Assembly (NCBI GenBank): GCA_030390025.1
Contig: CM059432.1
Location: 57,414,001-57,478,000 of the forward strand
Length of the DNA: 64,000 nucleotides
Direction of reading: 5' to 3'
Source: Squalus acanthias
Lineage: Eukaryota
Below the pieces are notes generated by a model. It worked only from the letters and a program-made list of their open reading frames with translations. It had not been told where the DNA came from and ran no database searches. This document shows, piece by piece, positions 9,021 through 54,847 of this stretch. The number at the start of each line of letters is the position of its first letter. The first letter of the stretch is position 1. A program made the translations under genes and the position numbers.

Positions 9021-9441
9021 TCTGGTGGTGGAGTGGGTACATCGGTATTTGGGACCTGAGTGTAGAACACTTTTAACATGGACCATAGTCTAAATAACAC
9101 AGATTAATGTGATTATTTTCAGGAGTTTCAAAAGAGAAATTATCAGCCATTAAATGAAACCATGGCAAATAATTCCTTTGGTGACACTGTACCCTGGAAA
9201 AGCTGAATGTCACTTTATACGATGAATGATATTGTAATGGACTTCTAGGACTGCAAGAAACTAAGGGGGAAAAATTCAGTATCGCCCCGTTTGGGGCGCA
9301 ATTATCGGCCGGGCGCAAAGATTAGCGCCTGGCGCTAATTATCGCCTCCGACTGCAAACTTGACTTTTATCGCCCCCGGAGGTGATTGGAGCGCTAAATC
9401 AGGCGCTACACATCTGTCTTAAGGCCCAAAGGCCGAGGAGC
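9021..9441 (+). repeat. 421-bp direct duplication, copy 1 (copy 2 at 12273-12693)
   Basis: Colinear at a constant offset of 3252; about five substitutions counted by eye. Confidence 0.95.
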
Positions 9442-10164: not shown

Positions 10165-12272
10165 AGTATTAATCAACAAATAACAAGAGCTTGTAACAAA
10201 GGTAATACAATAATCATGGGGGACTTTAATCTTCATATAGACTAGGCAAATCAAATTGGCAAAGATAGTTGGCAAAGATGGAGGATGAGTTCATAGAATG
10301 CATTCGAGACAGTTTCCTAGAACAATACGTCATGGAACCAACCAGGGAACAGGCTATTTAAGATCTTGTATTGTGTAATAAGACAGGGTTAATTAGTAAT
10401 CTCATAGTAAAGGATCCTCTGGGGAAGAGTGATCATAATATGGTAAAATTTCATGTTGAGTTTGAGAGTGAAATACTTCAGTCAGAAACGAGAGTCTTGA
10501 ACTTAAATAAAGCCAATTACATAGGGATGTGGGACGAATTAGCTAAGGTAGATTGGGAAATTAGATTAAAAGGTATGACGGTCTTCTCTCTTAGGCAGTC
10601 CCTCGGAACCGAGGATGACTTGCTTCCACATTAAAAATGAGTTTGCAGGTGACTGATGAGTCCAATGCGGGACCTACAGTCTCTGTCACAGGTGGGGCAG
10701 ACGGTGGTTGAAGGGGCGGGTGGGTGGGGTGCTTGGGTTGACATGCGCTCCTTGCACTGCCTGCACTTGGCTTCCGCTTGCTCCCGGTGAAGAGACTCAA
10801 GGTGTTCGGCGCCTTCCCGGATGCTTCTCCTCCGCTTTGTGCGGTCTTGGGCCAGGGATTCCCAGGTGTCAGTGGGGATGTTACACTTTTTCAAGGAGGC
10901 TTTGAGGGTGTCCTTGAAGCGTTTCCTCTGCCCACCTGGGGCTCTCTTACCGTGCCGGAGCTCCGAGTAGAGCGCTTGTTTTGGGAGTCTCGTATCGGGC
11001 ATACGGACAATGTGACCTGTCCATCGGAGCTGATCGAGCGTGGTCAAAGCTTCGATGCTGGGGATGTTGGCCTGAGCAAGAACACTGACTCTGGTGCGCC
11101 TATCCTGCCAATGGATTTGCAGGATCTTGTGGAGGCAGCGTTGGTGGTACCTCTCCAGTGCTTTGAGGTGCCTGCTGTACATGGTCCATGTCTCTGAGGC
11201 ATACAGCAGGGCGGGTGTCACTGCTGCTCTGTAGACCATGAGCTTAGTGCCGGGTTTGAGGTCCTGGTCTTCAAACACTCTCTTCCTCAGGCGACCGAAG
11301 GCTGCACTGGCACACTGAAGGCGGTGTTGGACTTCGTCGTCGACGTCTGCCCTTGTTGACAGTAGGCTTCCGAGGTATGGAAAGTGGTCCACGTTGTCCA
11401 AGGCCTTGTCGTGGATTTTGATAATCGGGCGGCAGTACTGTGTGGCGGGGCCAAGTTGGTAGAGGACCTTTGTCTTACGGATGTTTAGTGTAAGGCCCAT
11501 GCTCTCGTACGCTTCGGTGAAGGTGTTGACGATGGTTTGGAGTTCGACCTCCGAGTGAGCGCAGACGCAAGCATCGTCTGCATACTGAAATTCGACGACA
11601 AAGGATGGGACGACCTTGGATCTGGACTGGAGGCAACGGAGGTTGAACAGTTTCCCGTTTGTTCTGTAAATTAGCTCCACTCCAGTGGGGAGCTTACTGA
11701 GGGTAGATAAGCAGTGACAAACATGTAAAGAAATATTCCAAAATTCTCAACAAATATACATTCCATTGAGAAATAAAAACTCCATGGGAAAAGTGATCCA
11801 TCCATGGCTAACTAAAGAAGTTAAGGATAGTATTAGATTAAAAGAAGAGGCTTATAATTAAAGCGGTAGCTGCAGAGATAGTGGATGCACTGGTGTTAAT
11901 TTTCCAGAATTCCCTAGATTCTAGAACGGTCCTCAAGGATTGGAAGGCAGCAAACATAACCCTGCTATTTAAGAAAGGAGGAAGAGAAAAAACGGGGATT
12001 TACAGATCAGTTAGCCTGACATCAGTAGTGGACAAAATGCTAGAATCTATTATTAGGGACGTGGTAATATGGCACTTAGAAAATAATAATAGGATTGGAC
12101 TGAGTCAACACGGATTTATGAAAGGGGAATCGTGTTTGACAATTCTGTTAGAGCTTTTTGAAGATGTAACTAGTAGAATGGATAAGGGGGAACCAGTGGA
12201 TGTAGTGTATTTGGATTTTCAAAAATCATTCGATAAGGTGCCACACAAGAGGTTATTACACAAAATTAGGAC
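10165..12272 (+). mobile_element. CR1 LINE internal fragment (endonuclease to RT), interrupted by an RTE
   Basis: KDPLGKSDHNMV in ORF 10371; YLDFQKSFDKVPH in ORF 11881; the CR1 resumes at ~11702 after the RTE. Confidence 0.9.
10583..11701 (-). mobile_element. RTE-clade LINE, 5'-truncated, RT C-terminus and 3' end
   Basis: ORF 10631-11680 has YRTNGKLFNLR, QYADD, VDHFPYLGS, LLYASETWT, DTRLPKQALYSEL and a C-terminal CPTC..H zinc-finger-like motif. It ends in an RTE-type 3' sequence gcaagtcatcctcg..gagggactgcc. Confidence 0.9.
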
Positions 12273-12693
12273 TCTGGTGGTGGAGTGGGTACATCGGTAT
12301 TTGGGACCTGAGTGTAGAACACTTTTAACATGGACCATAGTCTAAATAACACAGATTAATGTGATTATTTTCAGGAGTTTCATAAGAGAAATTATCAGCC
12401 ATTAAATGAAACCATGGCAAATAATTCCTTTGGTGACACTGTACCCTGGAAAAGCTGAATGTCACTTTATACGATGAATGATATTGTAATGGACTTCTAG
12501 GACTGCAAGAAACTAAGGGGGAAAAATTCAGTATCGCCCCGTTTGGGGCGCAATTATCGGCCAGGCACAAAGATTAGCGCCTGGTGCTAATTATCGCCTC
12601 CGACTACAAACTTGACTTTTATCGCCCCCGGAGGTGATTGGAGCGCTAAATCAGGCGCTACACATCTGTCTTAAGGCCCAAAGGCCGAGGAGC
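12273..12693 (+). repeat. 421-bp direct duplication, copy 2
   Basis: Near-identical to 9021-9441. Confidence 0.95.
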
Positions 12694-12836: not shown

Positions 12837-13640
12837 GGGCTGGATTTTACCAGCCCTGAGGAGGCGGGTTTGGAGGCGGGACTACTGGGATAATGGAAAA
12901 AATTGGGAGCGGGTCCCAACCCGCCTCCGAACCATCTTCCCGGGAGGCGGGTCCCCGACTCGCGCAGGGACCCGTCTCCTAGCAGCAGGGAGGGGGTTAG
13001 AGCCAATTAACTGCCTGTTAATAGGTAGTTAACAGGCAGTTAAGAGGCTTTTCCCCATTTTCAGGGGAAACCCTGCCAGGGTCAGCGAGGCGAGCTGTGG
13101 GTCTGCTGCAGTGTAAGTGTGAAAATGTCAGCTGCAGAGGTAGTGTGATGGGTGCAATGGTGCACAGGTAAGTATGACAGGTGAGAGAATGTCGTGAGAA
13201 ATATTTTTATTCTGTTTATGTGGATCTGCAGGTGACAAGTTTCTGTGAAGCCTCATCTGATCAGCAGAATTGACAGATGGCTTCTGCAATCTCAAATGCA
13301 GCTGCCATCTGTTTTCTCCTAAGGAGAGAGTCATTGGTGAGCCTGGGTACAAGAGCTCACCTTTGGACAGTGATTGTCAGTGTTTGACAGCACCCCAATG
13401 CTGTCAAACACTGACAATTCATCTGTCAAAAAATTAACAAAAGCGACAGATGAAGCGCCATGCACTGACGTCATCTGACACCGGCTTTCCCTTAATTGGC
13501 TGGCAAGCCTGCAGGGCGGGCTTAACAAGGCCAATGAAGGGAAAATAGCATCAGGTTGTCAGACGTCGCTGGGGGCGGGACTAGAACCCGGAAACCAGCA
13601 GTCCCGCTCCCAACATGCCTCCTCAGGTAAGATCCCGGCC
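12837..13640. mobile_element. Harbinger-type MITE related to 4437-5082 (opposite orientation)
   Basis: Imperfect TIR ggctggatttta/taagatcccggcc; ~13300-13600 is reverse-complement-similar to ~4480-4800. Confidence 0.7.
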
Positions 13641-14359: not shown

Positions 14360-15680
14360 CTGGAAATAAACTAACCCCCACTAACAGTCTGCAACATATG
14401 GGAATGGCCCATAAAGGGACTGATTGTTGCCTCGCTACCGCCCCAATTTTTAGTGTGAACAGAGTGGTAGTGAGATTATTATTATTTTTTAAACTAACGC
14501 TATGGGATTTTTTAGTGGACCTTGATATAGGTGGCTAGCGATTCCATCCAAAACAAGAAGGAGCCTAATACATATCTGTGAATTAGGCTCCTAACAGGCC
14601 TTTAGGACCCAGCCACCATGTTGGTCTCCACCCAAGATGCTATCGCCAGCTAATCAACCCACCCACAAACCATGGGTAGCTACTTCCGGCGATATTTAAA
14701 GGGGCCCTCTCTCAGGTAAAATGCTGGAAATATCTGGGAGACATTTTACTTCTATTATATTGTTGTTTTATGGCTACTTGGACCATTTCAAAGTGCGATT
14801 AGTGGCTGTACAATGTTCTCAACCCTTAAGGGGCTCAGGCAATGCACTTTTTTTCATCATGGCAATTCCACTCTGGCCAGAGGAACAGGAAGAGCAGCAG
14901 CAACCGGAGGAAGCAGCAAACTGAGCTGCAGCTGCAAGGAAAGCAAATAGAAGGAGGTGTACTCGCAGGAATGTATAGGCTGGGACAACATACCTGTAGT
15001 TCTCTGAGAACTAGTGCACAAGGAGTCTGCACTTCTCTAGGGAGACTGTCACAGAGTTGTGTCATCTCCTTCAGCAAGACCTGCAACCAACTGCCACAGA
15101 TAATACAGCATTACTGTTGCAGTCAAGGTCACAGCAGCCCTGAACTTCTTTCCCTCTGGCTGCTTCCAGGCTGTCACAAGGGATATCAGTCAGTCTACAT
15201 TAAGCAGGTGGCTGATGCCATGTTTGATAGAGCAAATATTTTCATCACGTTTCCCATGGTCATCCGAAAGCAGTAGCATAGGGCTCTGAGATTCGCATAG
15301 ATTGCAGGCATCCCCCAAATCCGAGGCCTCATTGATTGCACGCATGTCGCCCTGCACACTTCTTCAGATGAGCCCAGTGCCTTCATGAATCGCAAGGACT
15401 TACACTCCATTAACGTGCAACTAGCATGTGGTGACCAGCGGCACATCCTGCAGGTCTGTGCCTGCTATCTTGGCAACTGCTGTGATATTTTATCTTGTAC
15501 CAAGCTTCCTTCTTCCACTCTTCAATAAAGCACAGCATATGAGGCATTGGCTGCTTGAGTACAAGGGTTATCCCCTGTGCACTTGGCTCTTGACTCCTCT
15601 CTGGAACCTAATCTTGGCAGCCGAACTTCACTATAATCAGATTCATTGCTTAACTAGAACTCTCATTGAACAGACCATTG
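14360..15680 (+). mobile_element. degenerate Harbinger with frameshifted transposase
   Basis: Fragments AVKVTAALNF, GLIDCTHVAL, NRKDLHSINVQLAC, WLLEYKGYPL and RTLIEQTIG across ~15120-15680. Confidence 0.8.
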
Positions 15681-16960
15681 GATCATTGGGGGATCGGATA
15701 ACAGGGAATGGGATCATGGGGGGATCGGATCATGGGGGAGATTGGCTCGCGGGGAGATGGGATCGCGGGGGGATGGAATCGTTGGGGGTTCGGATCGCCG
15801 GGGTATCGAATCACAGGGGGATTGGATCGTGGGGGATCAGATTGTGGGGGGATCAGATTGTGGGGGATTGGATCACTGGGGGGGATTGGATCATGGGGGA
15901 ATCAGATCGCCGGGGTATCTGATCACCGGGGGATTGGATCGCAGGGGGATTGGATCGTGGGGGATCAGATTGTGGGGGATTGGATCACTGGGGGGGGATC
16001 GGATCGTGGGGGAATCAGATCGCCGGGGTATCGGATCGCCGGGGGATTGGATCGCAGGGGGATGGATCGTGGGGGATTGGATTACTGGGGGGGGGATCAG
16101 ATCATGGGGGAGTCGGATCATGGGGGATTGGATGATGGGGGGATAGGGTAGCTGGAGGTGTCAGATCACGGGGGGATCAGATCGCCGGGGGATCGGATCA
16201 CGGGGAGAGCGGATCGTGGAGGATCGGATTGTGGGGGAATCGGATCGCCGGGGGATCGAATCACAGGGGGATCGGATCGCAGGAGGATCTGATTGCGGGG
16301 GGATTGGATCAAGGAGGATCAGATCATGGGGGGGATAGGATAGCTGGGCGGATCAGATCGAGGGGGGATCGGATCAAGGAGGATCGGATTGTGGGGGAAT
16401 CAGATCAAGGAGGATCGGATTGTGGGGGAATCGGATAGCCGGGATATCGAACCGCGGGGGGGGGTCGGATCGCGGGACGATTGGATCGTGGGGGGATAGG
16501 ATAGCTGGGGTGATCGGGGCATGGGGGATGGGATCGTGGGGGGATCGGATCATGAGGGATGAGATCGGGGGGGGATCGGATAGCGGGGGGTGTCACATCA
16601 CGGGAGGGTCAGATCACGAGAGATCAGATCATGGGGGGATCAGATAGCGGGGGATCGGATCGCGTGGGTGATTAGATCGCAGGGGATCGGATCTCAGGAG
16701 ATTGGATTGGATTGTGGAGGGATCGTATTGCGGGGGAAGGGATTGCTGGGGGGATCGGATCATGGAGGAGTCGGATCACGGGAGGGATTGGATCGTGGGG
16801 AGATTGGATCAGGAGAATCGGATCATGGGGGGTTTCAGATCGTGGGGGTATTGGATTGTGGGGGGATCGGATTGTGGGGGGATCGGATTGCGGGGAGCAT
16901 TGAATTGCGGGGAAGTTGGATCATGTGAGGGTCAGGATGCGAGGGGTTGGCATCGGCTCA
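15680..16960 (+). repeat. G-rich minisatellite, ~15-16-bp unit GGGGGATCGGATCG(C/T)G
   Basis: Continuous degenerate tandem array of ggggatcggatc-like units with strong G-strand bias. Confidence 0.92.
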
Positions 16961-19051
16961 CGGTCAGTATCGGACCGCGGGGCGGGGGTAAGGCAGATCA
17001 TGGCAGGTTAGCTTGGAGGTTGAAGGTCCGGGGGCAAGCTCTCCTGCTCCTCCTTGCCCACAAGCAGTGCTGGATTGAGCAGTTCTTGCCTCCCTTTACC
17101 TGCTGGCTTTCCTGAGCCCTGGGAAACCAGGCCCGCAGCCATTAAATCCAAATGATTGCTAAAACCTGAGTCACACTGCCTCATTAACATATTATGATTC
17201 CTGACCCACCTCCCTAGAGCTGATTAATCACTCGCGCCCCCAACCTGCCCCAATTAAACCAGAAGTAGGCTCATTCGCGGTGAGTTGGGCTCTAGTTTCC
17301 CATTTTTAGAATTTAAACCCCCTAGCCCCTCTCCCATCCATCCTGGGGGTCGGGTGGTGGGGGTGGGGGTGATTAAAATTCTTCCTACAGTGTTTTAACT
17401 TTACACGAAAGGACACCTGCCTCCATTCTAACAACAGTGCCTGTCTGCTCCAGCTCCAGTCCCAGTTCTGACTCCAACCTCAACTGAGGCCCATCCAACA
17501 CTTGCTCTTCGGAGAGCTAGAATCAGTAGCATTGGTAAGGGTGGCACTGTTGTCAGTGGCACTCTGCCCATTAAAATCAGAGGATTCAAATGACCTATTC
17601 TGCAGGGAGGTGTGAGAATGCAGCAAATTTGCATCTACTGATTTGTTCCTCCTTCACTTTTGTCCGCCTGTCTGTCCTCACTTTTCTTTGCTTTATTTTT
17701 CCCTGCCCTTTTTTTTCCTTGTATCTTTCTACTATTTGGCTCAGAAGTTTCCTTTTCATTCTGATTCCTAGAGCATTGGAGCTGTCACCTGAAGAGACTG
17801 CAGCGTGCAGTGTGGAGAAATGAGGGAGTCTATCAATGAAAATGAGCATAGGAGCTGGATTTAAAAGAGCGTGGGGAATGGGATCTTAAAAAGAGTTGAA
17901 CTTCAAAAAGAACACAAGGGTGGAACTTTGGGAGTGGCATTTCAAAATTGATGCTATAAATAAAGTGAGCAGGCTATTGACAAGCCAGATCCTGTTCAAT
18001 GTTGGGACTGTCCTAACCATCCTGGGCAGTGGTTGCACCACTGGCTGGCTACAGTCCCACTCTTCTCACTCTTGCTGCTCCCCACTCACCAAAGATCATC
18101 AGTTGGAGCGGAACCAAAGCAAAGAAGACTTTCAGACATGTGATGGCGGCTCCGACCTGATGGAAGGTGAACATCAAGACAAGTGATCATTTGTTATTTG
18201 TTATATTAATATATTTATGATATATTGTACCAGAAAACATGTGCATTGAGACCATCACAGTATAACAAATGACTAAAATCCTGGGTACACCACTGCTTAC
18301 ATTCATGGCATGAGCTTGGAGCTCTGCGTTAAGTGTATGCAATTCTCATGTATGAGGGACAAATAACCAAGTTATGGTATTATAATATTTAATGTTGAGT
18401 TATTTTATATTTAGAAATTCCATACACTTAAAGCTGCAGTGTAATGGTTAAAAGAGATAAAACACTCCACCTTGGTGGAATTCATTGTTAAGGATCCTTT
18501 ACCTATGTGATTAAAAAGGGCCAGAAAAAACACTAAAGTATAAAGGACAAGGTGCCAATTATCTCTGGCACAGCACTCAATGACAATTAAGTCCAATGTT
18601 TAGATTATACAAATAGAATTTTGGCTGAGAAGGATAATTAAGGCGTCAGTCTCTAATTTCTCACAGACAAAATGGCAACTTAATTTTCATCAACGAACTG
18701 GAGGTAGAACAAAGGGAACTGATTTATTTCTCTTAACAAAGAATAAGTGAATTATTCTCAAACCTTAAAAAAGGAGAGCTACTATTAGTAATGAACAAAT
18801 GGCACATGTTTCAGCTTTGTTATTGAAGCAAAGGTATGAATAGGATATTTGGATCTATTGTTATTCAAACCAAATGGACACAACAGGCTAGTTGACATCA
18901 TTTTAAGTCTCATCTGAAGTAACAATTTAAGTTCCATCAGAAAGGTAAGATAAGATCAAGCCTCCTTCAGGTTGCTTCATTTACATGTGTGACTAATTTA
19001 TTCTGAGAAGCCGCACAACACCAGGTTATAGTCCAACAGCTTTATTTGAAA

Positions 19052-19088
19052 TCACAAGCTTTCGGAGCACTGCTCCTTCGTCAGGTGA
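19052..19088 (-). ncRNA. minimal hammerhead ribozyme motif (Penelope pLTR)
   Basis: Minus strand tcac-CTGACGA-a-ggagca g tgctcc-GAAA-gctt-gtga: core boxes, stem II, palindromic AAGCTT stem III and tcac/gtga stem I. Confidence 0.78.
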
Positions 19089-21360
19089 AGTGAAGAAATG
19101 CATATAGGCACAGCATATATAGTCAGAGAACACTGCCAGACGACTACAGTTAATCTTTCTAACTGCCCTTTATCACACCTCAGCAGAGAGACAATCACGG
19201 CAATCAAAGGTGCGGATGGTGTCTAAACAGGTCAGTCAGGAAGACATTACATCAAAGACGATAGCAAAATACAACAAAGACAATGAGGTGGGGTCACAAG
19301 GGGTCAAATGTGGCAGATGCTGGGGTCTGCATGGAAAACAAAAAACGTTTTACTTTTTTTGCTGGAAATCACAGCAGGTCCGGCCGCATCGGTGTAGAGA
19401 GAACAAGCCAACAACAACTCGAGTCTGGATGACTCTACGTCAGGTGGGGTTACATGTAGCGTGACATGAACCCAAGATCCCGGTTGAGGCCGTCCTCATG
19501 GGTGCAAAACTTGGCTATCAGTTTCTGTTCGACGATTTTGCGTTGTCGTGTGTCTCGAAGGCCACCTTGGAGAACGCGTACCCGAAGATCGGAGGCTGAA
19601 TGTCCTTGACTGCTGAAGTGTTCCCCGACTGGGAAGGAACACTTCTGCCTGGCGATTGTTGTGCGGTGTCCGTTCATACGTTGTCTCAGTGTCTGCATGG
19701 TCTCGCCGATGTACCATGCTCCGGGGCATCCTTTCCTGCAACGTATGAGGTAGACAACGTTGGCCAAGTCACATGAGTATGTACCATGTACCTGGTGGGT
19801 AGTGTCCTCACGTGTGATGATGGTATCTGTGTTGATGATCTGGCATGTCTTGCAGAGGTTGCCGTGGCAGGGTTGTGTGGTGTCGTGGTCGCTGTTCTCC
19901 TGAAAGCTGGGTAATTTGCTGCGAACGATGGTACTTTTGAGGTTAGGCGGCTGTTTGAAGGCGAGTAGTGGAGGCGTGGGGATGGCCTTAGCGAGGTGTT
20001 CGTCGTCATCGATGACATGTTGAAGGCTGCGAAGAACATGGCATAGTTTCTCCGTTCCGGGGAAGTACTGGACGACGTAGGGTACTCTGTTGGTTGTGTC
20101 CCGTGTTCGTCTTCTGAGGAGGTCTATGCGATTTTTCGCTGTGGCCCGTCGGAACTGTCGATCGACGAGTCGAGCATCATATCCCGTTCTTACGAGGGTG
20201 TCTTTCAGCGTCCGTAGGTGTCCACCTATGGACACCTACGGACGCTGAAAGACGCCCTCGTAAGAACGGGATATGAAGCTCGACTCGTCGATCGACAGTT
20301 CCGACGGGCCACAGCGAAAAATCGCATAGACCTCCTCAGAAGACGAGCACGGGACACAACCAACAGAGTACCCTACGTCGTCCAGTACTTCCCTGGAGCG
20401 GAGAAACTACGCCATGTTCTTCGCAGCCTTCAACATGTCAGCGATGACGACGAACACCTCGCTAAGGCCATCCCCACGCCTCCACTACTTGCCTTCAAAC
20501 AGCCGCCTAACCTCAAACAGAGGTTCGCAGCAAATTACCCAGCTTTCAGGAGAACAGCGACCACGACACCACACAACCCTGCCACGGCAACCTCTGCAAG
20601 ACATGCCAGATCATCAACACAGATACCATCATCACACGTGAGGACACCACCCACCAGGTACATGGTACATACTCATGTGACTCGGCCAACGTTGTCTACC
20701 TCATACGTTGTAGGAAAGGATGCCCCAGAGCATGGTACATTGGCGAGACCATGCAGACACTGTGACAACGTATGAACGGACACCGCACAACAATCGCCAG
20801 GCAGGAGTGCTCCTTCCCAGTCGGGGAACACTTCAGCAGTCAAGGACATTCAGCCTCCGATCTTCGGGTAAGCGTTCTCCAAGGCAGCCTTCGAGACACA
20901 CGACAACGCAAAATCGTCGAACAGAAACTGATAGCCAAGTTCCGCACCCATGAGGACGGCCTCAACCGGGATCTTGGGTTCATGTCACGCTACATGTAAC
21001 CCCACCTGACGTAGAGTCATCCAGACTCGAGTCGTCGTTGGCTTGTTCTCTCTACACAGATGCGGCCGGACCTGCTGTGATTTCCAGCAAAAAAAGTAAA
21101 AAGTTTTTGGTTTTCCATACAGACTCCAGCATCTGCCACATTTGACCCCTTGTGACCCCACCTCATTGTCTTTGTTGTATTTTGCTATCGTCTTTGATGT
21201 AATGTCTTCCTGACTGACCTGGTTGGACACCATCCATACCTTTGATTGCCGTGATTGTCTCTCTGCCGAGGTGTGATAAAGGGCAGTTAGAAAGATTAAC
21301 TGTAGTCGTCTGGCAGTGTTCTCTGACTATATATGCTGTGCCCATATGCATTTCTTCACT

Positions 21361-21397
21361 TCACCTGACGAAGGAGCAGCGCTCCGAAAGCTTGTGA
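21361..21397 (+). ncRNA. minimal hammerhead ribozyme motif (Penelope pLTR)
   Basis: tcac-CTGACGA-a-ggagc agc gctcc-GAAA-gctt-gtga. Confidence 0.8.
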
Positions 21398-21954
21398 TTT
21401 CAAATAAAGCTGTTGGACTATAACCTGGTGTTGTGCGACTTCTCACTTTTGTCCACCCCAGTCCAACACCGGCATCTCTGCATCATAATTTATTCTGGGG
21501 TACAGGTTTAGTATGTAAGTGAAGCCGCTTCCGACGGATGCTACATTTGGAGTGTAAATCGGGTGTGAAAGAACTGACTCTGAAGCGAAATGGCATGAAA
21601 CTCTATCCTCCAGGGAGTTTCACTCTGTTTTGTTCCATTGTCATTTCAGCCCCTGACACAGGCTGCACTTGCACTATACTGCAGCGCAGGTGTAAAGTGA
21701 AACTGCTTCAAATGTGGTGTAAATTCACTTTAGGTTCCACAAAAAAGGACTGCAAACATTTTCTTGTATTGAGAAATTATTGGAGTGGAATTATGGACAA
21801 TTCTGAACCCTTTTAGCCTATGGAACTGTAGCCAAGGCTCAACGATGGTGAAATTGGTCTTCACCAGTAGCACAAAATGGACTCCTAGTGAATCGGCAGC
21901 CCGTTTTAGACCGTGCACGATTTTCTTTTCCAAAGACGCTGCCCTGAAGAATTA

Positions 21955-26489: not shown

Positions 26490-28445
26490 GGGGTAAAAAT
26501 TGGTCTACGCCCGTTTGCGGGCACTGAATCGGCACTGCTCACACAGCCCATGTCTTGACACATGGGCACTGTTTAGTAGTGAAGTTGGTCCCCATGCCTA
26601 ATTATCATTGAATACGTGGGCTCTCAGCGCTGCTTGTACTGTTTATTGGCAGCTTGCCTAATTGGAGGTCTGAAAATGACGTATCCATGACGCTATTTAA
26701 AGGCAGCCTGCATCTCTTAAGGGGTGAATACTGCTGAACACTGGAATCTGCTGTGGATACGTCAGCCATGCCTTATACAGCTTCTGGGAGGGCATGATTC
26801 TTAGATGCTGCACTGGGGGTCTTGGTGGAGGCTGGCCACAGGACTATTGAGGTGCTGTCGCTGCCGGGGGGTAGGGGGGTGGGGGCATGAAAAGTTTCCA
26901 GACAAGTGGCCAGGCAGCAGTGGCAGAGGAGGTCAATGACAGAAGCATTGCACCCAGGACATGGCTGCCATGCCACAAGAAATTCAATGACATCACCAGG
27001 GTTGCTAAGGTAGGACTCCTGACTCAGATCTCACACTACTCTCAGCTCTGCACCACCTGTAGCCCCACTACTCACAAGCCATCTCGCCCCTGCTTCCCTT
27101 CACTCTCCGACAATCACTGCACCACACTTCATTCCACCTCCTTCTGCTATTACTCACAGACCTGTTGCTCTCCTTACTTTTACTTCCTTCACTTTCCACA
27201 CCTCTGTCACATTTCACACAACACCCACACTATTCGACCATAAGATGTACATCCTCAAAACATCTCACTAGGCTACCACCTCTTTCTTGCAGGACAAATA
27301 GGCGCATAATACAAGGGAGCATGCACAGATAGGAGGAAGATGAGCCTAAATCCATGTCTTGTCCTCTTCCACTCAAGGAAGAGGTCCTGGACATTGTGGG
27401 TAGGGGGTGGGTGAGGCTCGCAGCCACTGGTGAGGCAGGATGACACATCCCACAGGGTTTTTGTGCATCTTACCCTCTTCCCATCGCACACCAATATCAC
27501 CCTACATACTCTGCATAACCAAGTGCAGCTGCTTTCAGCAGACATTCATCTCTCTCTCTGCCTACCCTTGATACTAACTGCCTTTCTCTTCTATTTCAGG
27601 TGCAGAAGCTGTACAGGACCCTAGGTGAGCAGAGAAAGAGGAGGGCGGCACAATAGAACCTCTCCTTGATTAATTACAGTCTGACAGTTCTGGCAGCTGG
27701 GACAATTGGTCTCTGCCTCTCTTCCTCATCTTCCTCATCACCTTCAGGCTCCTGCACTTCTTCCTCCCCGGTGGTTCCAAGGGTTGTCTCCTTCGGAGGG
27801 AAAAGCTATGGAGCATGCAGCAGAAGACCACGAATCTGGAGACTTGATCTAGCTGTATTGCAGAACTCCTCCCAAATGGCCGAGGCAGTGGAACCTCTGC
27901 TTGAGAAGACCGATGGCCTGCTCAATCAGAGTCCTGATGGATGCATGTCTCCAATTATAGCACTCCTCAGATTCTGTGCTCAGGTTCCTAATAGGAGTCA
28001 TGAACCCTGTGCTCAAGACATACCCCTGTCCTCTAGCAGCCAGCCTGACACCCTTGCGGGTGGAATAGAGAGGGTATTGAGGACTGGCACAGGATGAAGG
28101 TGGCATGAGTATTGCTAGGAAACTGGGCACAGACCGCCATGATGCACTGGCTGTCATCACACACCACCTGCACATTGTAGGAATGGAATCCCTATCTGTT
28201 GACATCCATGCCCAGGTATTGATGTGGAGCACGAAAGGCGATGTGGGTGGAGTCAATTATTCCTTGCACTTGTGGGAGCCAGCATTCTTGGTGATGCCCC
28301 TGGCTCTTGCATCCTGCCTCGCTTGGGGAATCAGGTGAAGCCATTCCTCCTGGAGTAAAGAGCCTTGGTGACATACTGAGTGATGTCACCTGTTGGAGCC
28401 TGGAATGACCCTGTAGCGTAGAAATTCAAGGCCACAGTAACCATG
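26490..28445. mobile_element. degenerate Harbinger: Myb/SANT gene (+, ~26770-27640) convergent with transposase (-, ~27690-28445)
   Basis: TIR-like start ggggtaaaaattgg; AEEVNDRSIAPRTWLPCHKKFNDITR; minus-strand VQGIIDSTHIAFRAP and RTLIEQAIGLLKQRFHCL. Confidence 0.82.
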
Positions 28446-29662: not shown

Positions 29663-30847
29663 ATGGGGGCTGTACTGGCAGTCGACCTTGCCCTCCAGGA
29701 TCTATAGCAGAGGGAGCGTAGGCAGCGAGAAAGATTGGAACATGTGCCCAGAGGGAGGAGGAGGGCCATGAGGTCTCTCAACAGGAAGCCTTACTCTCCG
29801 AGGTTATTCCGACAGCACTTCTCCTACCTTCAATTAAACACGGAGCAGTGTATTAGAAGGCTCCGCTTCACCAAGGAGGTGGTCACAGAACTCTGCCGCC
29901 TCCTGCAACCAGACCTCGAGCCTCAGATCAGGACGAGGATGGCTCTCTCAGTGGCAGTCAAGGTCACCGTCGCCCTCAATTTCATCGCCAGCGGATCCTT
30001 CCAGTCTACAACAGGAGATATAGGTAACATCGCGCAGTTCACCATCCATCTCTGCACCCGGGAGGTCACAGAGGCTCTCTACAGTAGGAGAAGGGACTAC
30101 ATTTCCTTCCCCATCACTAGAGAGAAACAGGACGAACGTGGATGTGGCTTTGCCAGGATAGCGGGATTCCCCATGATGCAGGCCGCTATTGACTGCACCC
30201 ACGTGGCTTTGTGGGCACCGCATAACAATCCTGAGATCTTCCGTAACCGCAAAGCCTACCACTCACTTAATGTGCAGTTGGTGTGCGACCACATACAGTG
30301 AATCCTCAATGTCAATGCCCGCTATTCTGGCAGCAGCCACGATGCTTTCATGCTGCGCCAGACCGGTGTGCCAACACTCTTCCAGACACCACATCAAGCT
30401 CGTGGCTGGCTGGTTGGAGATGAGGGTTATCCGCTCTCTACCTGGCTCATGACTCCCCTCTGCAACCCCAACACTCCTGCCCGGCACTCACATAATGAGA
30501 GCCATGCCAACACCAGGAACATTATCGAGCAGACCATCGGGGTGCTCAAGCAACGGTTCCACTGCCTTGACCGCTTGAGAGGTGCCCACCAGTACTCAGC
30601 TGAGCGGGTGCCCCATTTCGTCATGGTGTGCTGCATGCTTCACAACTTGGCCATCATGAGGGCCCAGCCCTTGCCACCAGGGATTGCGGGACCACCTCAG
30701 GAGGAGGAAGAGGGAGAAGAGGAGGACGAGGAGGAAGAAGAGGAAGAGGAGGAGGAGGAGGAACAGGAGCGAGGGAGGAAGCAGCCACTCAATCAGACTT
30801 CCGGAAGGGCGGTCCGTGACCGCCTCATCAGACAGCGGTTCCAATAA
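29663..30847 (+). pseudogene. Harbinger (HARBI1-like) DDE transposase, single frame with two in-frame stops
   Basis: ATG at 29663, TAG at 29705, TGA at 30299. Motifs AIDCTHV, NRKAYHSLNVQLVCD, GSSHDAF, GDEGY, RNIIEQTIGVLKQRF, CCMLHN and an acidic tail. Confidence 0.92.
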
Positions 30848-40000: not shown

Positions 40001-41233
40001 GTATTCCCTTGCCTTGTTAGTCCTCCCAAAATGCATCACCTCACACTGTTCAGGGTTAAATTCCATTTGCCACTGTTCTGCCCATCTAACCATCCGTCTA
40101 TATTGTCCTGTAGCCTGAGGCTTCCCTCCTCACTATTTAGCACTCCACCAATTTTCGTGTCATCTGCGAACTTACTGATCATACCTCCTACATTCATATC
40201 TAAATCATTAATGTACACTACAAACAGTAAAGGCCCCAGCGCCGATCCCTGTGGTACACCACTGGACACAGGCTTCCAGTCACAAAAACAACCTTCGACC
40301 ATCACCCTCTGCCTCCTGCCACTAAGCCACTTTTTGATCCAATGTGCCAAATTGCCCTGGATCCCATGGCTCTTACCTTCTTGACCAGTCTCCCATGTTG
40401 GACTTTGTCAAAAGCCTTACTGAAGTCCATGTAGACTACATCAACTGCACTACCCTCATCCACACACCTAGTCACCCCCTCGAAAAATTCAATCAAATTG
40501 GTCAGACATGATCTACGCCTGACAAAGCCATGCTGACTATCCCTGATTAATCCCTGCCTCTCCAAGTGGAGACTAATTCTGTCCCTCAGAATTTTTTCCA
40601 ATAATTTCCCTACCACTGATGTTAGGCTCACTGGCCTGTAAATCCCTGGTTTATCCCTACTACCCTTCTTGAACAATGGTACTGCGTTAGCTGTTCTCCA
40701 CTCCTCTGGCACCTCCCCTGTGGCCAGAGAGGTTCTGAAAATTTCTGTCAGAGCCCCTGCAATCTCCTCCCTTGCCTCACACAGCAGCCTGGGATACATC
40801 CCGTCAGGGCCTGGGGATTTATCCACTTTTAAGCCCGCTAAAACCGCTAGTACCTCCTTCCTCTCAATACTAATTTGTTCAAGTATATCACAATCCCCCT
40901 GCCTGATTTCTATGCCTACATCACCCTTCTCCATAGTGAACACAGATGCAAAATATTCATTTAAAACCTCACCTACATCTTCCGGCTCTACAGACAGATT
41001 GTCACTTTGGTCCCTAATGGGCCCTACTCTTTCCCTGGTTATCCTCTTGCCCTTAATAAACTTATAAAACACCTTGGGATTTTCCTTTATTTTGCCCGCC
41101 AGTGTTTTTTCATGCCCCTTCTTCGCTCTCCTAATTTATTTTTTAAGTACCCCCCTGCACTTTCTATACTCCTCTGGGGCTTCCACTGTTTTTACTCCTT
41201 TGTATCTACCAAAAGCCTCCCTTTTTTTCCTAA

Positions 41234-41848
41234 AATGAGAAGTCGCTCAACACCAGGTTATAGTCCAACAGTTTTATTTAAAATTACGAGCTTTCGGAGC
41301 TCCGCTCCTTCTTCAGGTACAAGTACAGTGAGGGAATCGATTACACAGTATATATACACAGAAAACAATTTGTCTGCAGAGATACAATCTGTTAGGGAGG
41401 CATTACATCAAAGACACATCAGAGTACAGCTAAGACAATGAGGTGGGTCACAGGGGGTCTAGCGTGTCAAATGCTGCAGTCTGCAGTTAAGCTTTTAACT
41501 TTTTTTTTAAAACTGGAAAAACAGACAATGATGTCGAGTCACGTTCTGTAGCGTGACATGAACCCGAGATCCCTATTGAGGCCGTCCTCATGGGTGCGGA
41601 ACTTGGCTATCAGTTTCTGCTCGATGATTTTGCGTTGTCGTGTTTCTCAAAGGCCGCCTTGGAGAACGCTAACCCGCAGATCCGAGGCTGAATGTCCTTG
41701 ACTGCTGAAGTGTTCCCCGACTGGGAGGTAACAATCCTGCCTGGCGATTGTTGCGCGGTGTCCGTTCATACGTTGTCTCAGTGTCTGCATGGTCTCGCCG
41801 ATGTACCATGCCGCGGTGCATTCTTTCCTGCAACGTATGAGGTAGACA
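41234..41848 (-). mobile_element. Penelope-like 3' fragment (GIY-YIG end plus pLTR)
   Basis: VYLIRCRKECTAAWYIGETMQTLRQRMNGHR; 10-bp TSD tttttcctaa; same family as 19006-21485. Confidence 0.9.
41284..41320 (-). ncRNA. minimal hammerhead ribozyme motif
   Basis: Minus strand tac-CTGAAGA-a-ggagc gga gctcc-GAAA-gctc-gta. Confidence 0.72.
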
Positions 41849-44800
41849 TTTTTCCTAATCCATTCTTGTATATCCCTTGACATCCAGGGTTCCCTGGGCT
41901 TGTTGGTCCCACCCTTGACCTTTACGGGAACATGTTGGCGTAGTACTCTCTCTATTTCCTTTCTGAAAGACTCCCATTGCTCTGATGTGGATTTTCCTAC
42001 AAGTAGCTGATCCCAGTCCACTTTGGCCAGATCCTGCCTTATCATATTAAAATCGGCCACCCCCCAATTTAGAACCTTTATTTCCGGTCCATTTTTAGGT
42101 TTGTCAAACAGGATTTCCTTTTCATAAATCCATGTTGACTCTGCCCAATCTTACTATTAGTTTCTAAGTGCCCAGTTATTGCATCCATTATTATAGATTC
42201 CAGCATTTTCCCAACTACTGATGTGAGGCTAACAGGTCTGTAGTTCCCCGTTTTCTCTCTCCCTCCTTTCTTAAATAGTAGGGTACATTTGCTATCCTCC
42301 AATCTGCAGGAACCGTTCCAGAATCTATAGAATTTTGCAAGATGACAACCAATGCATCCACTATTCCAATGGCCACCTCTTTCAAAACCCTAGGATGTAG
42401 GTCATCCGGTCCTTGGAATTTATCGACTTTTAGTCCCATTAATTTTGCTAGTACTGTTTTTTTACTAATAATAATTTCTTTAAGTTCCTCATCCTCGTCA
42501 CACCCTTGGTTTTCTCGTATTTCTGGGAGGTTTTTTGTGTCTTCCTCCATGAAGACAGAAACAAAGTATTTATTTAATTTCTCAGCCATTTCCTCATTCC
42601 CCATTACAAATTCTCCCGTCTCTGACTGTAAAGGACCTACATTTACCTTCGCCAGTCATTTCCTTTTCACATAGCTATAGAAGCTTTTACAATCCGTTTT
42701 TATATTTTTCGCTAGTTTGTGCTCATATTCCATTTTCCCTTTCTTTATCAATTTCTTGGTCCCCCTTTGCTGAGTTCTAAAAAGATCCCAATCCTCAGGC
42801 TGACCGCTTTGTCTGGCAACTTTATAAACTTCCTCCTTTGACTTAATACTAGTTTTAATTTCTTTTGTTAGCCATGGTTGGATCACTTTTCCTTTTGGGT
42901 TTTTATGCCCCAGATGAATATATGTTTGTTGCAAATTATGCATTATTTCCTTGAATGTTCGCCATTGTATGTCCACTTTCATACCTTTTAGTGTAGTCTC
43001 CCAATCTACCATGGCCAACTTGTCCCTCATTCCCTTGTAGTTTCCTTTGTTTAGATTGAAGACCTTAGTTTCAGATTGGACTACATCACTCTCAAAGTTA
43101 ATGTAAAATTCAATCATATTATGGTCACTTGTCCCTAAAGGCCCCTTTACCACAAGATTATTGATTAGCCCTTTCTCATTACACAGTACCAGATCCAGAA
43201 TAGCCTGTTCCCTGTTTGGTTTCTCCACATACTGATCCAGGAAACCATCTCGCATGCATTCCAAGAATTCGTCATCCACACTATTAGTGGTAATTAGATT
43301 TGCCCAGTCAATATGTAGATTAAAGTCCCCCATGATTACCGTATTGCCCTTGTTACATGCACTTCTAATCTCTTGATTGATACTGTGCCCTACATTACCA
43401 TTACTGTTTGGTGGTCTATACACAACTCCCTCCAATGTTTTCCGCTCTTTTCTGTTTCTTAGCTCCACCCAAACTGATTCCACTTCTACATCACGATCTG
43501 CCAAGCCAAGATCTTTTATCTCTACCGTACCGATCTCATCCCTTATTAACAGCGCTACGCCACCTCCTTTTCCTTTTTATCTGTCCTTCCTAAATGTTGA
43601 GTATCCTGGAACATTCAGTTCCCAGCTTTGGTTACCCTGCAACCATGTCTCTGTAATGGCAATTACATCATACCCATTTACTTCTATTAGTGCCATTAAT
43701 TCATCCACCTTGTTGCGAATGCTACGTGCATTTAGATAAAGTGCCTTCAACTTTGCCTGTTTAATATTTTTCTGCACTTTGACCCTCTTTACTGTTGGAC
43801 TTTGTTTCTGCTCCCTACTAGTTTTGCTGACTACTTTTCTAACTTGCACTTCCAGCTTTGTTTCTAGCTGCCTGAGTCTACCATGCTTTGCAGACTGGAA
43901 ATGATGGGCTCCATGGTGTGCGCAGAGGCTTGTGCAATGTTGGAGGCGGACTCCTCCACACTCCTTACCATTGCCGACAGGCACTCGGGCACCCTCATCA
44001 TTGCACCTATCATCTCCGTGTGCATGCCCACCACCCTTCTTCTAAAGGCCTCCCCATCGAGTTTCTCATCTGAGTCCTATGCAGCAGAACTCGCGCGCAA
44101 ACTCACCCTCTGGGGAGCTGGCCCCGAGCTACCCTTTTCCCCTGGCCTTGCTGCAGCTTGCTCGTTCCCGGTGCCTCACCCTATGCAGATTCTGCTACTA
44201 TACTAACCTCGAAAGAATGAGTAGTGCCAGTATCTGAGCTGGTGCCTTCGGGTGAGACAGGTGTGTTCTTTCTCCTCCTCTTCTCCCGCCTCGCTCTCTA
44301 AGGTGCCCTCAGGGACAGGCTGCTCAGGTGCTTGCTCATTATCTGAAAGCATAAAGGCACAAGAGTTGGGTTAAGGTGAGGGGAGAGGGGCAGGAAGGGA
44401 GAAATAGATGCATACAGCATGATTAGCTGGAAAGTGCGAAAGGCTTGTGGTGTGAGGGGGAAGTGGGATGTGAGAAGAAGGAATAGGGATGAACATAATG
44501 TTGTTGTCCCCAAAGGGGTGAACATCACTGGTGGCCACGGCACCCACCACCTGGTGCCGAATAATCTCCAGTACTCGATTTTCCAGCGCAGACAGTGGTT
44601 GGGTGTCGGCTTGTCCCCCGATTGTGTGCTCCTGCTCCCTCCTGTTGTGAGCAACCTTGGCCTGCAAGAGAAAAGAAAGTGTGTGAGTGAGTGTGCAGCA
44701 ATATGTTTGGGTGATATGCCTGCCATAGTTGAATAGCTGTCATTGTGTGCAAGGTGTGAGATGTGGGTGTGAATGTTGTTAGGTAGAGATTGTTGGTGGG

Positions 44801-47686
44801 TGAGCGCTGGGGCTGTGGTGCTTTGGCCAGTGTGTGCAGACTGTGGTTCAGACAGTGGTATGTAGCATTTGTTGAGGCATTGACTCATCCTGACTGCCTG
44901 AGTGAGGTTGTAAAATTTCTTCCTGCACTGTGTGTGGGTTCTGGGGACCACACTGCTGCCCGAGACATGCTGAGCAACCTCCCTCCACATGGCACGGATG
45001 ACTTGCGGTGAAGGCCTCCTGCCATTTGCCGGGTAGAGCACCACCCTCCGTCTCTCCACAGCAGACAACAACTCTTCCAATGCTTGGTCTGAATATCTGT
45101 GGGCTCTCTCCCTGGGGCGTGGATCTGTACATCATGGCAGCTGCTTGAGTCGTCCAGCTCCTTGGGCTTGGCCTGTTCCTGCTTGCTGACACAGGTTCAC
45201 AGCCAGCAGTACTGAGAATCAGATTCTGCAGCATCAATGAACCTCCCCTTTAAGAACTGGAAAGTGTCTGTAACAATGATGACATGCAATTAGACTGCAC
45301 CTCATATTGGTTAGCGCTTTGAATGTAGCGCCACTGAGCTAGGTCATTAGCACTTGATTTAGCACTTCAATCCTTTCTTTGAGCGACGATACTCAATTTC
45401 ATGTGCAGCATGATTCATTAGCGCCAGGCGCTAATTCTCAAACTTTTCAAAAGTTACTGCCCATTCCTGGGCTATAATGAATTTCTCCCCCAAGATCCCA
45501 GAGCATACATGAACAGAAAAGGGCTTTCACTCGCTGATAATGCAGCTGGTGTGTGATGAAATGCAGTGCATCAGACATCCTGGCAGTCCAATGCATTGAG
45601 CAATTGCTGGTGCACAGCTATCATTCTCCTTTTAAAGGCTGGTCTTCTGTAGTAGAGCTAGGATGCAAGCTTTCCCTCTGGAGAGCTGTGTCCCATGCCA
45701 TACTTTTTCCCCTGCCCTTGCTCCTGCTCACCTGTATTCGGTGAATCACCTAGCGCAGACTCCTGTAACTCACTCCCTACTGTACGTTGGGTGTCGCTTT
45801 CTGAGCAAATACTTGGAAGGGTAAGAGAAAGTGATGGTGTATCTTCCAAAGGCTGTCCTTCTCTTGCTCCACTACAGCTGGGCCCAGGACTTACGAGGGA
45901 ACTGGAAAGATCGGAGATAGACAACTGGCATTTAGTGGCAAGGGAAAGCAGTAGCAGATAAGTGGCAGCTCTATGCACCGCAAGGTTGTCATGTAGAGTA
46001 TGTGAAGGAGAGAGTTCAGTGTCAAGAGAAAAGGAGGTGAGGTAGCCAATCACCCTGTGGGACATTTCCTGCACCCTTGCCATCTGTCACACCTCACGCC
46101 CTCCCTCTGCCAATGACATCAATGGCTGCCTTTTCCGTTGGTCTGAGGATTTGCGTAGCTTGTTGCCTTCCTTTGGTTCTTGTCATGTCTCTCTTGTTGT
46201 GCACCCGCTTTTCCTGTGAGAAGAGTGGGAGCGTGTTTGTGTGTGGCCTATTGAAGGGATATGATGGTGTCTGTGTCATATTAGCATAATGCGCATGGTG
46301 AGAGAATGAAGAAGTAGGTGTGGGAAGAAGGAATATAATTGTGAGGGCAGGAGCAGGTGCAGAGTGTTCAAGTGGAAGCAGAAGGAGGTGCATGGAAGAG
46401 TACTGTTCTCATTTGAGGACAGAGATGGGACAGGAATGTTTGTTAGATCTGGGGATACAGCAGAGTGGTGCAGGGTTGTGCAGAGAGTAAGAGAGCTGTA
46501 AATGAGAATCTTACCTTAGCATCTCTAGTCAAGTCATTGAATTTCTTCAAGCATTGCTGCCAGGTCCTAGGTGTAGCGCTTCTGGCATTGGCTTGTTCTG
46601 CAACCTCTGACTACAGTTGAGGGGTTATTTTACTGGGGCGCCCTGGGTCTGTTTGTGGGGAAAAGCTTCCTTCCTCCTGGCCAGGACCTTCCCAGCATCA
46701 GCATCATCTAAGAAGCAGGGGGCCCTGGCAGCAGTAATTTTCCATAAATTCAGCAGTTCATGCAGTACAGAAGGCAGCATTAACCAAATACACTCCCCCT
46801 TTAATCGTGGGAGTTCTGCCGAATTTGGTGCCCCCGCCCCCCCCCCCCCCCCACACCCCCCACAAGCCCAGGTAGTGCTGACAGCTCACTCTTACCATCG
46901 AAATGATGCACACACCTCAATGTGATTCGTGCCTTATAACATTGGCTTCAGGCACGCTCAGCGAATATCCCGTGCACTTCACGCCCATTTTGCGCAAAAG
47001 TTGAAAACCCCCTTGACCACATTTATCCCAATTTACACAGGATATACTGCAGGAAACAAAAATTATTCAGTCTTGAACAAACTCATAGTCAATTCAACAT
47101 AAAAAATAGCACTTTCATAAATGGATATCTTGTGCTTGCATGTACCTAGGCAGCCACTTACAATACTAAAATATCTATATTTTTTATGGAAAATGTTTCA
47201 AAGTCTATACCAGCAAAATAGTGTTAATGGACAATCTTTCCTATGAAAACAAAATAATGAATAAATGGAAAGGTCATTACTGCCACTGTAGATCTAAAAT
47301 AAATCTATGCCTTCACATATGAAGTAAACATTAAAGAGAAGCTCACTCGACTCTGCCAAACACCTTTTCTGCAGTGATGGAGACAGTAGCACCCACAACT
47401 GATAGCCACACACAGTGACAAAATCAAAGGAATGTTAGAGTATCTGCAGAATTAATACTTCTAAGAAATTCTACCTGGGAATATAACAGGATAAGGCAGA
47501 ACCATCTCCAATCTATTAGCTCAAACATTGGACAAAATCTTACAATCTGTATTCATGAGTGAGATGGGTCAGTAACTCCCGAATTTATCAGAGCCTTGTT
47601 AAAAAAAAAGCCATGGCTGTGAAATTCTGGTCTGAATGATTGGATTATTTAAAGATACTTGTTCTGTAACATATAACATAGGTAAT

Positions 47687-54089: not shown

Positions 54090-54847
54090 GGGGGAAAACT
54101 TCAGTTGGTTTGCGCCTCCCGTTAGCGCCTTAAGAGGGCACTAATGGGGCGCAAGGCAACTAGCGCCCGGGTGCGGTGCCGCCCATGCCTCCCGCGAAAT
54201 TCAGCGGGAGGTTAGCGGCGGTGCTAACCGGTAGCGCCCTGTGGCGCTGCGCCGCCGGCGATGACGTCATCGCCGCTTGCACTCCGGCCACGATCTTCAG
54301 TAGCGCCCCTTGACTTACCGCTGGACGCTATGTCCGACGGGGTCAGGGGGGCCTACCTGTGGCCGGGGCGGCGCTAGTTAAAGGGGAGGTGGCGGGCGGT
54401 CATTTTTTGTTGCTGGCCGCCTGCCAGCACCTGCCCCCGTTGCTGTCCCCGGCCCCCGTGAAGCCCCCCCCGCGAAGTGCCAGCTGCGCTCCAAGAGCCC
54501 GGCACTTCTCTTGAGTGCCGCCTCTTTTGCCGGCACTCCTGATCCCCGGGGGCCCAGCTGGGCTCTGGTTCACGCTGCGCAAGGCCCCTACCCTTTAAGA
54601 AGGGGAGGAAGGCCTGCAATACCGCGGTGCGACGTGCCGCAGCGCCTGGCGCTGCAGCACATAGCGCCACGATATTGACTCGCAGCGCCCCAAGATGGAT
54701 GCAGGGCGCTTCCAGTAGCGCCCCGCTTCCCTCTTGGGGCGCAACCACTCAATTTCCAGCACGGGGGCGCTAATTTTTATGGGGTGCTAAAAGTAGCGCC
54801 CCGGCGAAGTTAGCGCCCCAAAGGTGGCGCGACTCAATTTTTCCCCC
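54090..54847. mobile_element. GC-rich non-autonomous Harbinger element
   Basis: The left end gggggaaaacttcagttggtttgcgcctcccgttagcgccttaagagggc closely matches the reverse complement of ~10110-10162; right end caatttttccccc. Confidence 0.85.

Follow-up and report, generated by a model that had tools for sequence, protein, structure and literature searches.

The window analysed here, a 64,000-nt stretch of Squalus acanthias DNA (contig CM059432.1, positions 57,414,001 to 57,478,000), carries at 18994-21497 an inverted insertion of a Penelope-like element (PLE). The insertion is a dead, 5′-truncated, endonuclease-bearing (EN+) PLE, and we read it as two 5′-truncated copies lying head-to-head within one 12-bp target-site duplication (TSD), each reverse-transcribed from its own nicked target strand, with a probability of about 0.6. 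Within this explanation the anatomy, the TSD, the two 3′ ends of the family, their pairing and the sample statistics are direct observations. Twin priming is favoured because the pairing of ends, the arms that do not nest in one another, the starts at the short site, the contrast in TSDs, the uncorrelated arm lengths and the discordant arms fit two coupled primings.

The insertion is built of the following parts.

18994..19005, plus strand: left TSD copy, 12 bp, whose last 2 nt (TG) double as the outer end of the left arm
19004..20224, minus strand: left arm, a 5′-truncated PLE copy that stops at the short (tail-less) 3′ end of the family
20225..20227, no strand: junction insert CCT, 3 nt, not of the family
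20228..21445, plus strand: right arm, a 5′-truncated PLE copy
21446..21485, plus strand: tail of the right arm, 40 nt between the two 3′ end sites of the family
21486..21497, plus strand: right TSD copy, 12 bp

The duplicated target sequence TAATTTATTCTG is found at 18994-19005 and 21486-21497 and nowhere else in the window, and the first T of its right copy is also compatible with family sequence. The arms, each of about 1.22 kb and inverted, are 96.4% identical over 1221 columns; 36 substitutions separate them, and the right arm has in addition a net 4-bp loss near 20518-20522. An original prediction, made from the sequence alone, had described a single insertion event with two inverted 1.22-kb arms in one 12-bp TSD and a tail of about 40 nt (21446-21485) on the right arm only, and all of this agrees with what was found. 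The arms also belong to one subfamily and not to two, as 7-nt and 22-nt insertions are common to both, and the proposed comparison of arm to arm revealed separate mutations in each. The symmetry of the centre needs a small correction. Upstream of the break, family sequence reads ...GAACGCGA|TGGACACC, or a close variant, in 29 other family copies, so the A at 20228 is family sequence and the non-family spacer is 3 nt long instead of the 4 nt first described; at the centre the right arm extends 1 nt further, and the truncation of both arms at the same base becomes a pair of inner ends at most 1 nt apart. The motif CACCTA spanning the junction recurs 10 nt downstream, from which the CCT may have been copied as a templated insertion, and the centre of the hairpin is predicted to form a DNA stem of 20 bp with a 4-nt loop. 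Contigs from two samples cross the left flank and reach 28 nt into the left arm (the bar for bridging was 31 letters), and the central junction is unbridged among the contig pieces listed. An assembly artefact is unlikely, because the arms have separate mutations and a single TSD encloses both. The same central junction was found at none of the 40 loci scored among 692 candidates. In the left flank, at window position 18719, contigs of both samples have G where the assembly has C.

The left arm retains an open coding remnant with two recognisable parts.

19450..20223, minus strand: 3′ remnant of the open reading frame (ORF), 257 codons plus stop, C-terminal part of the polyprotein
19843-19869, minus strand: CX2-5CxxC linker (CHGNLCKTC) in the left-arm ORF remnant
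19705-19755, minus strand: CCHH motif of a GIY-YIG-type endonuclease, VYLIRCRKGCPGAWYIG, with the histidines downstream (as defined in PMC8557442)

The corresponding remnant in the right arm is frameshifted by the net 4-bp loss near 20518-20522 and has a stop codon at 20997-20999. Among the clusters nearest to the left-arm ORF in the Atlas are GIY-YIG ones (score 0.96, family share 13-27%), and a Pfam search of the endonuclease remnant gave no match at E 0.001. Pfam detected RVT_1 in the long family copies L118 and L110, both of which have an extra copy of the 3′ end before the ORF, that is, a pseudo-long terminal repeat (pseudo-LTR) or partial tandem structure; matches of the reverse transcriptase (RT) sequence to PDB were weak (E 0.067 and 0.3). 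The family shows features by which EN+ PLEs are recognised, namely an ORF with RT followed by GIY-YIG, the CCHH motif, a pseudo-LTR, and an inverted truncated copy with a one-sided tail. A CX2-5CxxC linker between RT and endonuclease is described for Neptune and Nematis, and Penelope/Poseidon are without it (PMC8557442), so the linker sequence favours a placement with Neptune/Nematis over one with Penelope/Poseidon. Two 3′ ends occur in the family, one tailed (21485 in the window) and one short, about 35-40 nt upstream, and the 40-nt tail supplies the 3′ side of a predicted stem-loop. In the near-full-length copies (L118:3638-4309 and L110:2980-3762, minus strand) the tailed 3′ end site coincides with the ATG of a frame that begins MATIDTT..., and in L118 this frame stays open upstream across the tail region.

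How the two ends are used becomes visible in a survey of related insertions from contig C1 and the start of contig C2. A 24-mer of the subfamily had 972 exact matches, of which the first 100 gave 81 insertions; a 22-mer of its sister subfamily had 2979, of which the first 100 gave 82, after exclusion of 1 match (the partner arm of locus L057) and of 4 copies in segmental duplications. The head-to-head layout accounts for 95 of the 163 insertions (48/81 in this subfamily and 47/82 in the sister) and is the modal form of the family; the layout as such is already published. In seventeen of the 95 an outer end was unscorable; among the remaining 78, a tailed and a tail-less end were paired in 77, short with short in 1 and tail with tail in 0. 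Single-arm copies (68) were tailed in 32 cases, short in 34 and unscored in 2. Nine of the 14 single-arm copies with a TSD of at least 10 bp end at the short site, which is therefore taken as a primary start. TSDs, for which calls tolerated 8-nt offsets and one mismatch so that a few are probably false, are mostly 12-14 bp. They reach at least 10 bp in 72 of 93 inverted insertions as against 14 of 67 single-arm ones (Fisher p 1e-12), and within these groups they measure 12-14 bp in 65/72 two-armed and 10-11 bp in 8/14 single-arm insertions. Both target ends look to have been captured only when two arms form.

Arm lengths vary with little regard to each other. The arm extending further 5′ is the tailed one in 40 insertions and the tail-less one in 36 (by more than 50 nt in 28), with equality in 1 (n = 77), and the lengths lack a positive correlation (Spearman -0.16, n = 68; +0.10 for the 20 insertions in which both arms pass the probe). 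When the long arm is at least 1 kb, the short arm has a median of 0.21 of its length (n = 16; Kolmogorov-Smirnov test against uniform, p 0.03). Near-equal arms are nonetheless in excess over random pairing: inner 5′ ends lie at most 20 nt apart in 14/95 against 3.3 by permutation (0/20,000 shuffles), strongly so in this subfamily (10/48) and weakly in the sister (4/47, p 0.09). The count of symmetric PLE hairpins that had been proposed for the whole genome is given by these 14 of 95 for the sample of 163, in which the window hairpin, with its 1.2-kb arms, is the longest near-symmetric case (the next is 736 nt). Some sampled insertions are more complex: L053, L103, L114 and L203 consist of several parts and contain additional short terminal repeats, inverted or in tandem; in two of the four, a single TSD encloses the parts. 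L133-L135 and L147/L217 each show the same PLE insertion three times on contig C1, which points to local segmental duplications that took place after the insertions. Tiny inverted remnants were sought at the 5′ ends of single-arm copies, and the best matches, of 4-8 nt at scattered distances (32/33 examined), were read as chance.

Partner arms usually have a common template lineage. Rare variants common to both arms number 23 in 23,023 nt, as against 2 in 64,940 nt for random pairs, and markers are discordant at 6.9% between partners and at 41.6% between random pairs. At least 3 discordant markers separate the partner arms in 10/67 loci. L057 (G000:C1, near 60.985 Mb) is the clearest candidate for an event that drew on two RNA templates: its arms lie in a 12-bp TSD and are unlike in the 22-nt subfamily indel and in the adjacent diagnostic base. 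The arms of the window hairpin have minority alleles in common, one of them nearly private (20921/19528), and disagree at 20648, 21109, 21125, 21222 and 21343, all non-CpG sites at which both alleles are common in the family. Under point mutation alone, discordance at these five sites has P 2e-4 or less. Four of the left-arm alleles there match the haplotype of L063, and three match those of L129 and L077. In the haplotype table built on substitutions only, the window locus is discordant at 5/24 markers, and site-by-site counts confirm the five.

These observations can be joined in one course of events. The endonuclease would stagger its cut of the target by about 12 nt, after which copying of the RNA would begin from one target 3′ end at the far start site, with the tail included, and from the other at the near one, some 35-40 nt upstream, with no tail. 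The two primings would be coupled, probably by one protein dimer, and would usually use the same or a sister RNA. Each complementary DNA (cDNA) would halt independently; here both appear to have halted at the same place, likely the common broken 5′ end of the RNA, and equal arms in general are assumed to form when both enzymes run off one RNA end. Host end-joining would then link the two cDNA ends with the addition of 3 nt, and gap filling would complete the palindrome. In vitro, a PLE protein of the anole cuts and extends both target strands, two adjacent RNA starts bound the tail, and the protein is predicted to be a dimer (PMC11167929).

Several points weigh against this reading. The start site in vitro did not differ between the two target strands, and the available text of PMC11167929 contains no report of a pairing of starts within one event; moreover, the protein used there belongs to the Penelope/Poseidon clade and the window family does not. 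The near-equal-arm excess is what fold-back predicts, and twin priming needs the added assumption of a shared RNA end to account for it. Microhomology at 54/95 head-to-head centres fits fold-back too, as does the junction of L045, which forms a 3-bp stem with a 12-nt loop within family sequence. At the window locus the tailed arm is the longer by 1 nt, so that the arms are nested and the geometry of fold-back is allowed. Later one-sided central deletions of an unstable palindrome could yield arms that do not nest, and ectopic gene conversion could yield discordant sites. Finally, an earlier and noisy haplotype table, which drew on a multiple alignment and included gap markers, had the window locus discordant at 1/27, that is, concordant. 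It is the equal-arm excess, the microhomology, the small hairpin at L045, the local nesting and the possible deletion or conversion that keep our confidence in twin priming from being higher.

The alternative with most to recommend it, though we consider it improbable, is that a cDNA begun at the tail site primes itself by folding back and is copied as far as the short site, with central deletions and gene conversion following later. Self-priming was suggested for inverted PLE insertions in 2013 (PMC3846280), and the original prediction also invoked it. Besides the near-equal arms and the microhomology, it would account for the rare variants common to partner arms and, at the window centre, for the duplicated CACCTA and the predicted stem with its 4-nt loop; the deletions that it needs accord with the reported fragility of long palindromes with short spacers (PMC7999016). 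What it handles badly is the survey. The second arm must nest in the first cDNA, which holds at the window locus and fails in 36/77 insertions where the tail-less arm extends further 5′, and the deletions called upon to repair this would have to be large and one-sided, shortening one arm to 100-260 nt while its partner keeps 1.1-3 kb. Copies starting at the short site occur alone with intact TSDs, yet short/short pairs are seen in only 1/78, and the better retention of TSDs in two-armed insertions goes unexplained. Arms identical at birth are contradicted by the five polymorphic differences of the window locus unless conversion followed. Self-priming is hence compatible with the geometry at this locus and is not the preferred explanation, in view of the non-nested arms, the near absence of short/short pairs and the five discordant sites.

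We regard as more doubtful still an intermediate of hairpin or inverted-repeat DNA tailed on both arms, from which the endonuclease trims one tail at integration. Under this scheme every insertion would have one tail, which could be on either arm; resolution mediated by the endonuclease is the origin given for the tail in PMC8557442, and the endonuclease of D. virilis needed the tail region to cleave (cited in PMC11167929). Against it, the tail in vitro is the interval between two starts of reverse transcription (PMC11167929), and the unequal, uncorrelated arms and discordant haplotypes demand extra steps. The arm divergence of about 3%, the five polymorphic sites and the unbridged centre might instead suggest two independent insertions, an older inverted copy mobilised as one RNA unit, or an artefact of assembly, and to these we give very little credence: one TSD encloses both arms, the layout recurs in 95/163 insertions, the window junction is absent from the 40 candidate loci scored, no one-arm A-to-G excess is seen, and the separate mutations of each arm oppose a chimeric read.

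The inverted PLE layout with a tail of 30-40 bp on one side is known from the literature (text to Fig. 2 of PMC8557442; Pen2a_Av in PMC3846280). With the published EN+ PLE insertions the window hairpin has in common the head-to-head 5′-truncated copy, the tail at one end, the TSD, the hammerhead in the terminal repeat and the C-terminal GIY-YIG; it is unlike them in that both arms are 1.2 kb long, with inner ends no more than 1 nt apart. The tail is described as optional or as standing at either end, and the available portions of PMC8557442 and PMC3846280 give neither a pairing such as the 77/78 found here nor the TSD contrast. PAc, a Poseidon element of Anolis carolinensis (PMC11167929), likewise has a tail that lies between two 3′ end sites on a predicted stem-loop, AT-rich targets, and a distance from predicted ribozyme cut to tail end that is 85-92 nt by the positions given in that paper and 92 nt here, whereas the window family has the CX2-5CxxC linker and Penelope/Poseidon do not. 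In the main text of PMC11167929 'inverted' occurs once, of a blocking group, and inverted insertions are not treated.

A comparison can also be made with LINE-1. In LINE-1 twin priming, the second target strand reportedly primes a second cDNA, and the joined cDNA ends leave a 5′ inversion in one TSD. Second-strand priming, joined cDNA ends and a single TSD are shared, whereas the L1 pieces are adjacent, non-overlapping parts of the RNA, with a variable internal second start. The PLE family of the window differs in that its starts are at fixed sites within about 40 nt of each other, the same stretch is copied twice, and the two-armed product is the majority outcome. LINE-1 twin priming is mentioned in the available part of 10.1101/2024.12.14.628481. 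Nothing that proposes coupled twin priming for PLEs turned up in our literature search, which covered paper listings and the articles cited here, and a keyword check of 10.64898/2026.07.22.740005 gave nothing relevant; subscription papers lay outside its scope, as did the PMC11167929 supplement and the reviews of Evgen'ev and Arkhipova (2005) and Arkhipova (2006), where the pairing may already be stated.

Each arm had also been predicted to contain a minimal hammerhead ribozyme, and the two motifs are located as follows.

19052..19088, minus strand: minimal hammerhead of the left arm, core CTGACGA...GAAA at 19060-19084
21361..21397, plus strand: minimal hammerhead of the right arm, core CTGACGA...GAAA at 21365-21389

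The left-arm motif comprises helix I (TCAC/GTGA), the core CTGACGA, helix II (GGAGC/GCTCC), GAAA and the palindromic AGCT; by analogy with the scheme of PMC4209133, the right-arm ribozyme is predicted to cut after 21393. CTGAYGA...GAAA is kept in 145/171 anchored family ends, and among 155 parsed family hammerheads GCTT occurs in 145 and TCAC/GTGA in 142. A loose hammerhead pattern matched the window 7 times against 4.5 expected, not above chance, and an Rfam search recognised no hammerhead at the locus, so that the call rests on position and on conservation across family copies. The helices show few changes among these copies, which are too alike for covariation, and the isolated single strand folds no better than shuffles. 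As in the minimal PLE hammerheads of PMC4209133, there are a short helix I, an unpaired base before helix II, a G-C closing pair and palindromic 15.2-16.2 positions; the Schistosoma hammerhead (PMC4209133) differs, its helix II having 7-8 bp against 5 bp here, as does the base at the cut site, here U. A single minimal PLE hammerhead gave no cleavage in vitro and dimers had low activity (PMC4209133), and a tandem cis-dimer cannot form at the window hairpin because each strand has one sense copy.

A read-through transcript of the hairpin would carry that one sense copy. When the outer ends of both arms were co-folded, 41 of 42 displayed positions in and near the motif paired with the antisense arm, and the ribozyme is accordingly modelled as paired shut in the read-through duplex and is predicted to be inactive in the head-to-head layout. 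The hammerheads came along with the terminal repeat as inherited passengers. A long RNA duplex is a fair prediction, conditional on the site being transcribed. No RNA data set was listed as carrying the sequence, and a run presumed to be RNA (X17) contributed pieces of the family but none of the flank; neither result speaks for or against transcription. The further proposals of the original prediction, that such a duplex might serve as a source of endogenous small interfering RNA, as an ADAR substrate or as a carrier of a ribozyme, found no backing in the hammerhead predicted to be paired with antisense, in the substitution pattern or in the surroundings. An editing scar of ADAR was rejected, as neither arm has an A-to-G excess (derived A>G changes are 4/23 in the left arm and 1/15 in the right) and most derived changes are C>T/G>A. 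A search of 43 ORFs of the window and 120 short frames (unmasked window plus 10 kb on each side) revealed no host gene; it would miss short or divergent exons and is compatible with a site in a long intron. Matches of the frames were confined to transposon families (RT, endonuclease, DDE and Myb/SANT). With E up to 1, four matches were all that Rfam returned, each to a microRNA (miRNA) model and below its gathering score, two of them on the palindrome centre.

The remainder of the window contains further repeats.

41232-41848, minus strand: third PLE copy of the same family, older and internally deleted, 80-92% identical to the right arm, with the short 3′ end
41292-41316: variant hammerhead core of this third copy
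13361-13432: small palindrome of about 70 nt, with a weak match to a miRNA model
54671-54756: small palindrome of about 86 nt
15670-16945: G-rich tandem array of a 16-nt, GGATCG-type unit, about 1.3 kb
9021-9320 and 12273-12572: direct repeat, 99% identical, 3252 nt apart, around an RT-bearing frame at 10631-11746
15301-15525, 27849-28256, 29708-30301, 44298-45131 and 62911-63792: DDE_Tnp_4 and Myb/SANT-like frames, spread over several repeats

The direct repeat could represent the LTRs of a young element. Harbinger-type DNA transposons typically carry the two genes represented by the DDE_Tnp_4 and Myb/SANT-like frames.

Taken by itself the locus is ordinary; its value is as one fossil product among thousands with a bearing on how PLEs make inverted, tailed insertions. 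Extrapolated from the sampled contigs, the two subfamilies would have left a few hundred near-symmetric hairpins in the genome, which may be a resource on the survival of palindromes and a hazard to short-read assembly. Sharp predictions that the existing in vitro PLE system can address follow from the pairing rule, from the independence of the arm lengths and from the contrast in TSDs. As a tentative generalisation, which we hold to be somewhat less probable than its opposite, PLEs may perform an obligately asymmetric twin target-primed reverse transcription, in which one dimer assigns the two strands to two fixed RNA starts and sometimes takes up two RNAs, giving recombinant insertions; the use of two RNAs is considered because the five discordant sites of the window hairpin suggest mixed templates. 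If this were true, a second reverse transcription would be the way in which PLEs solve the 'second strand' problem of retrotransposition.

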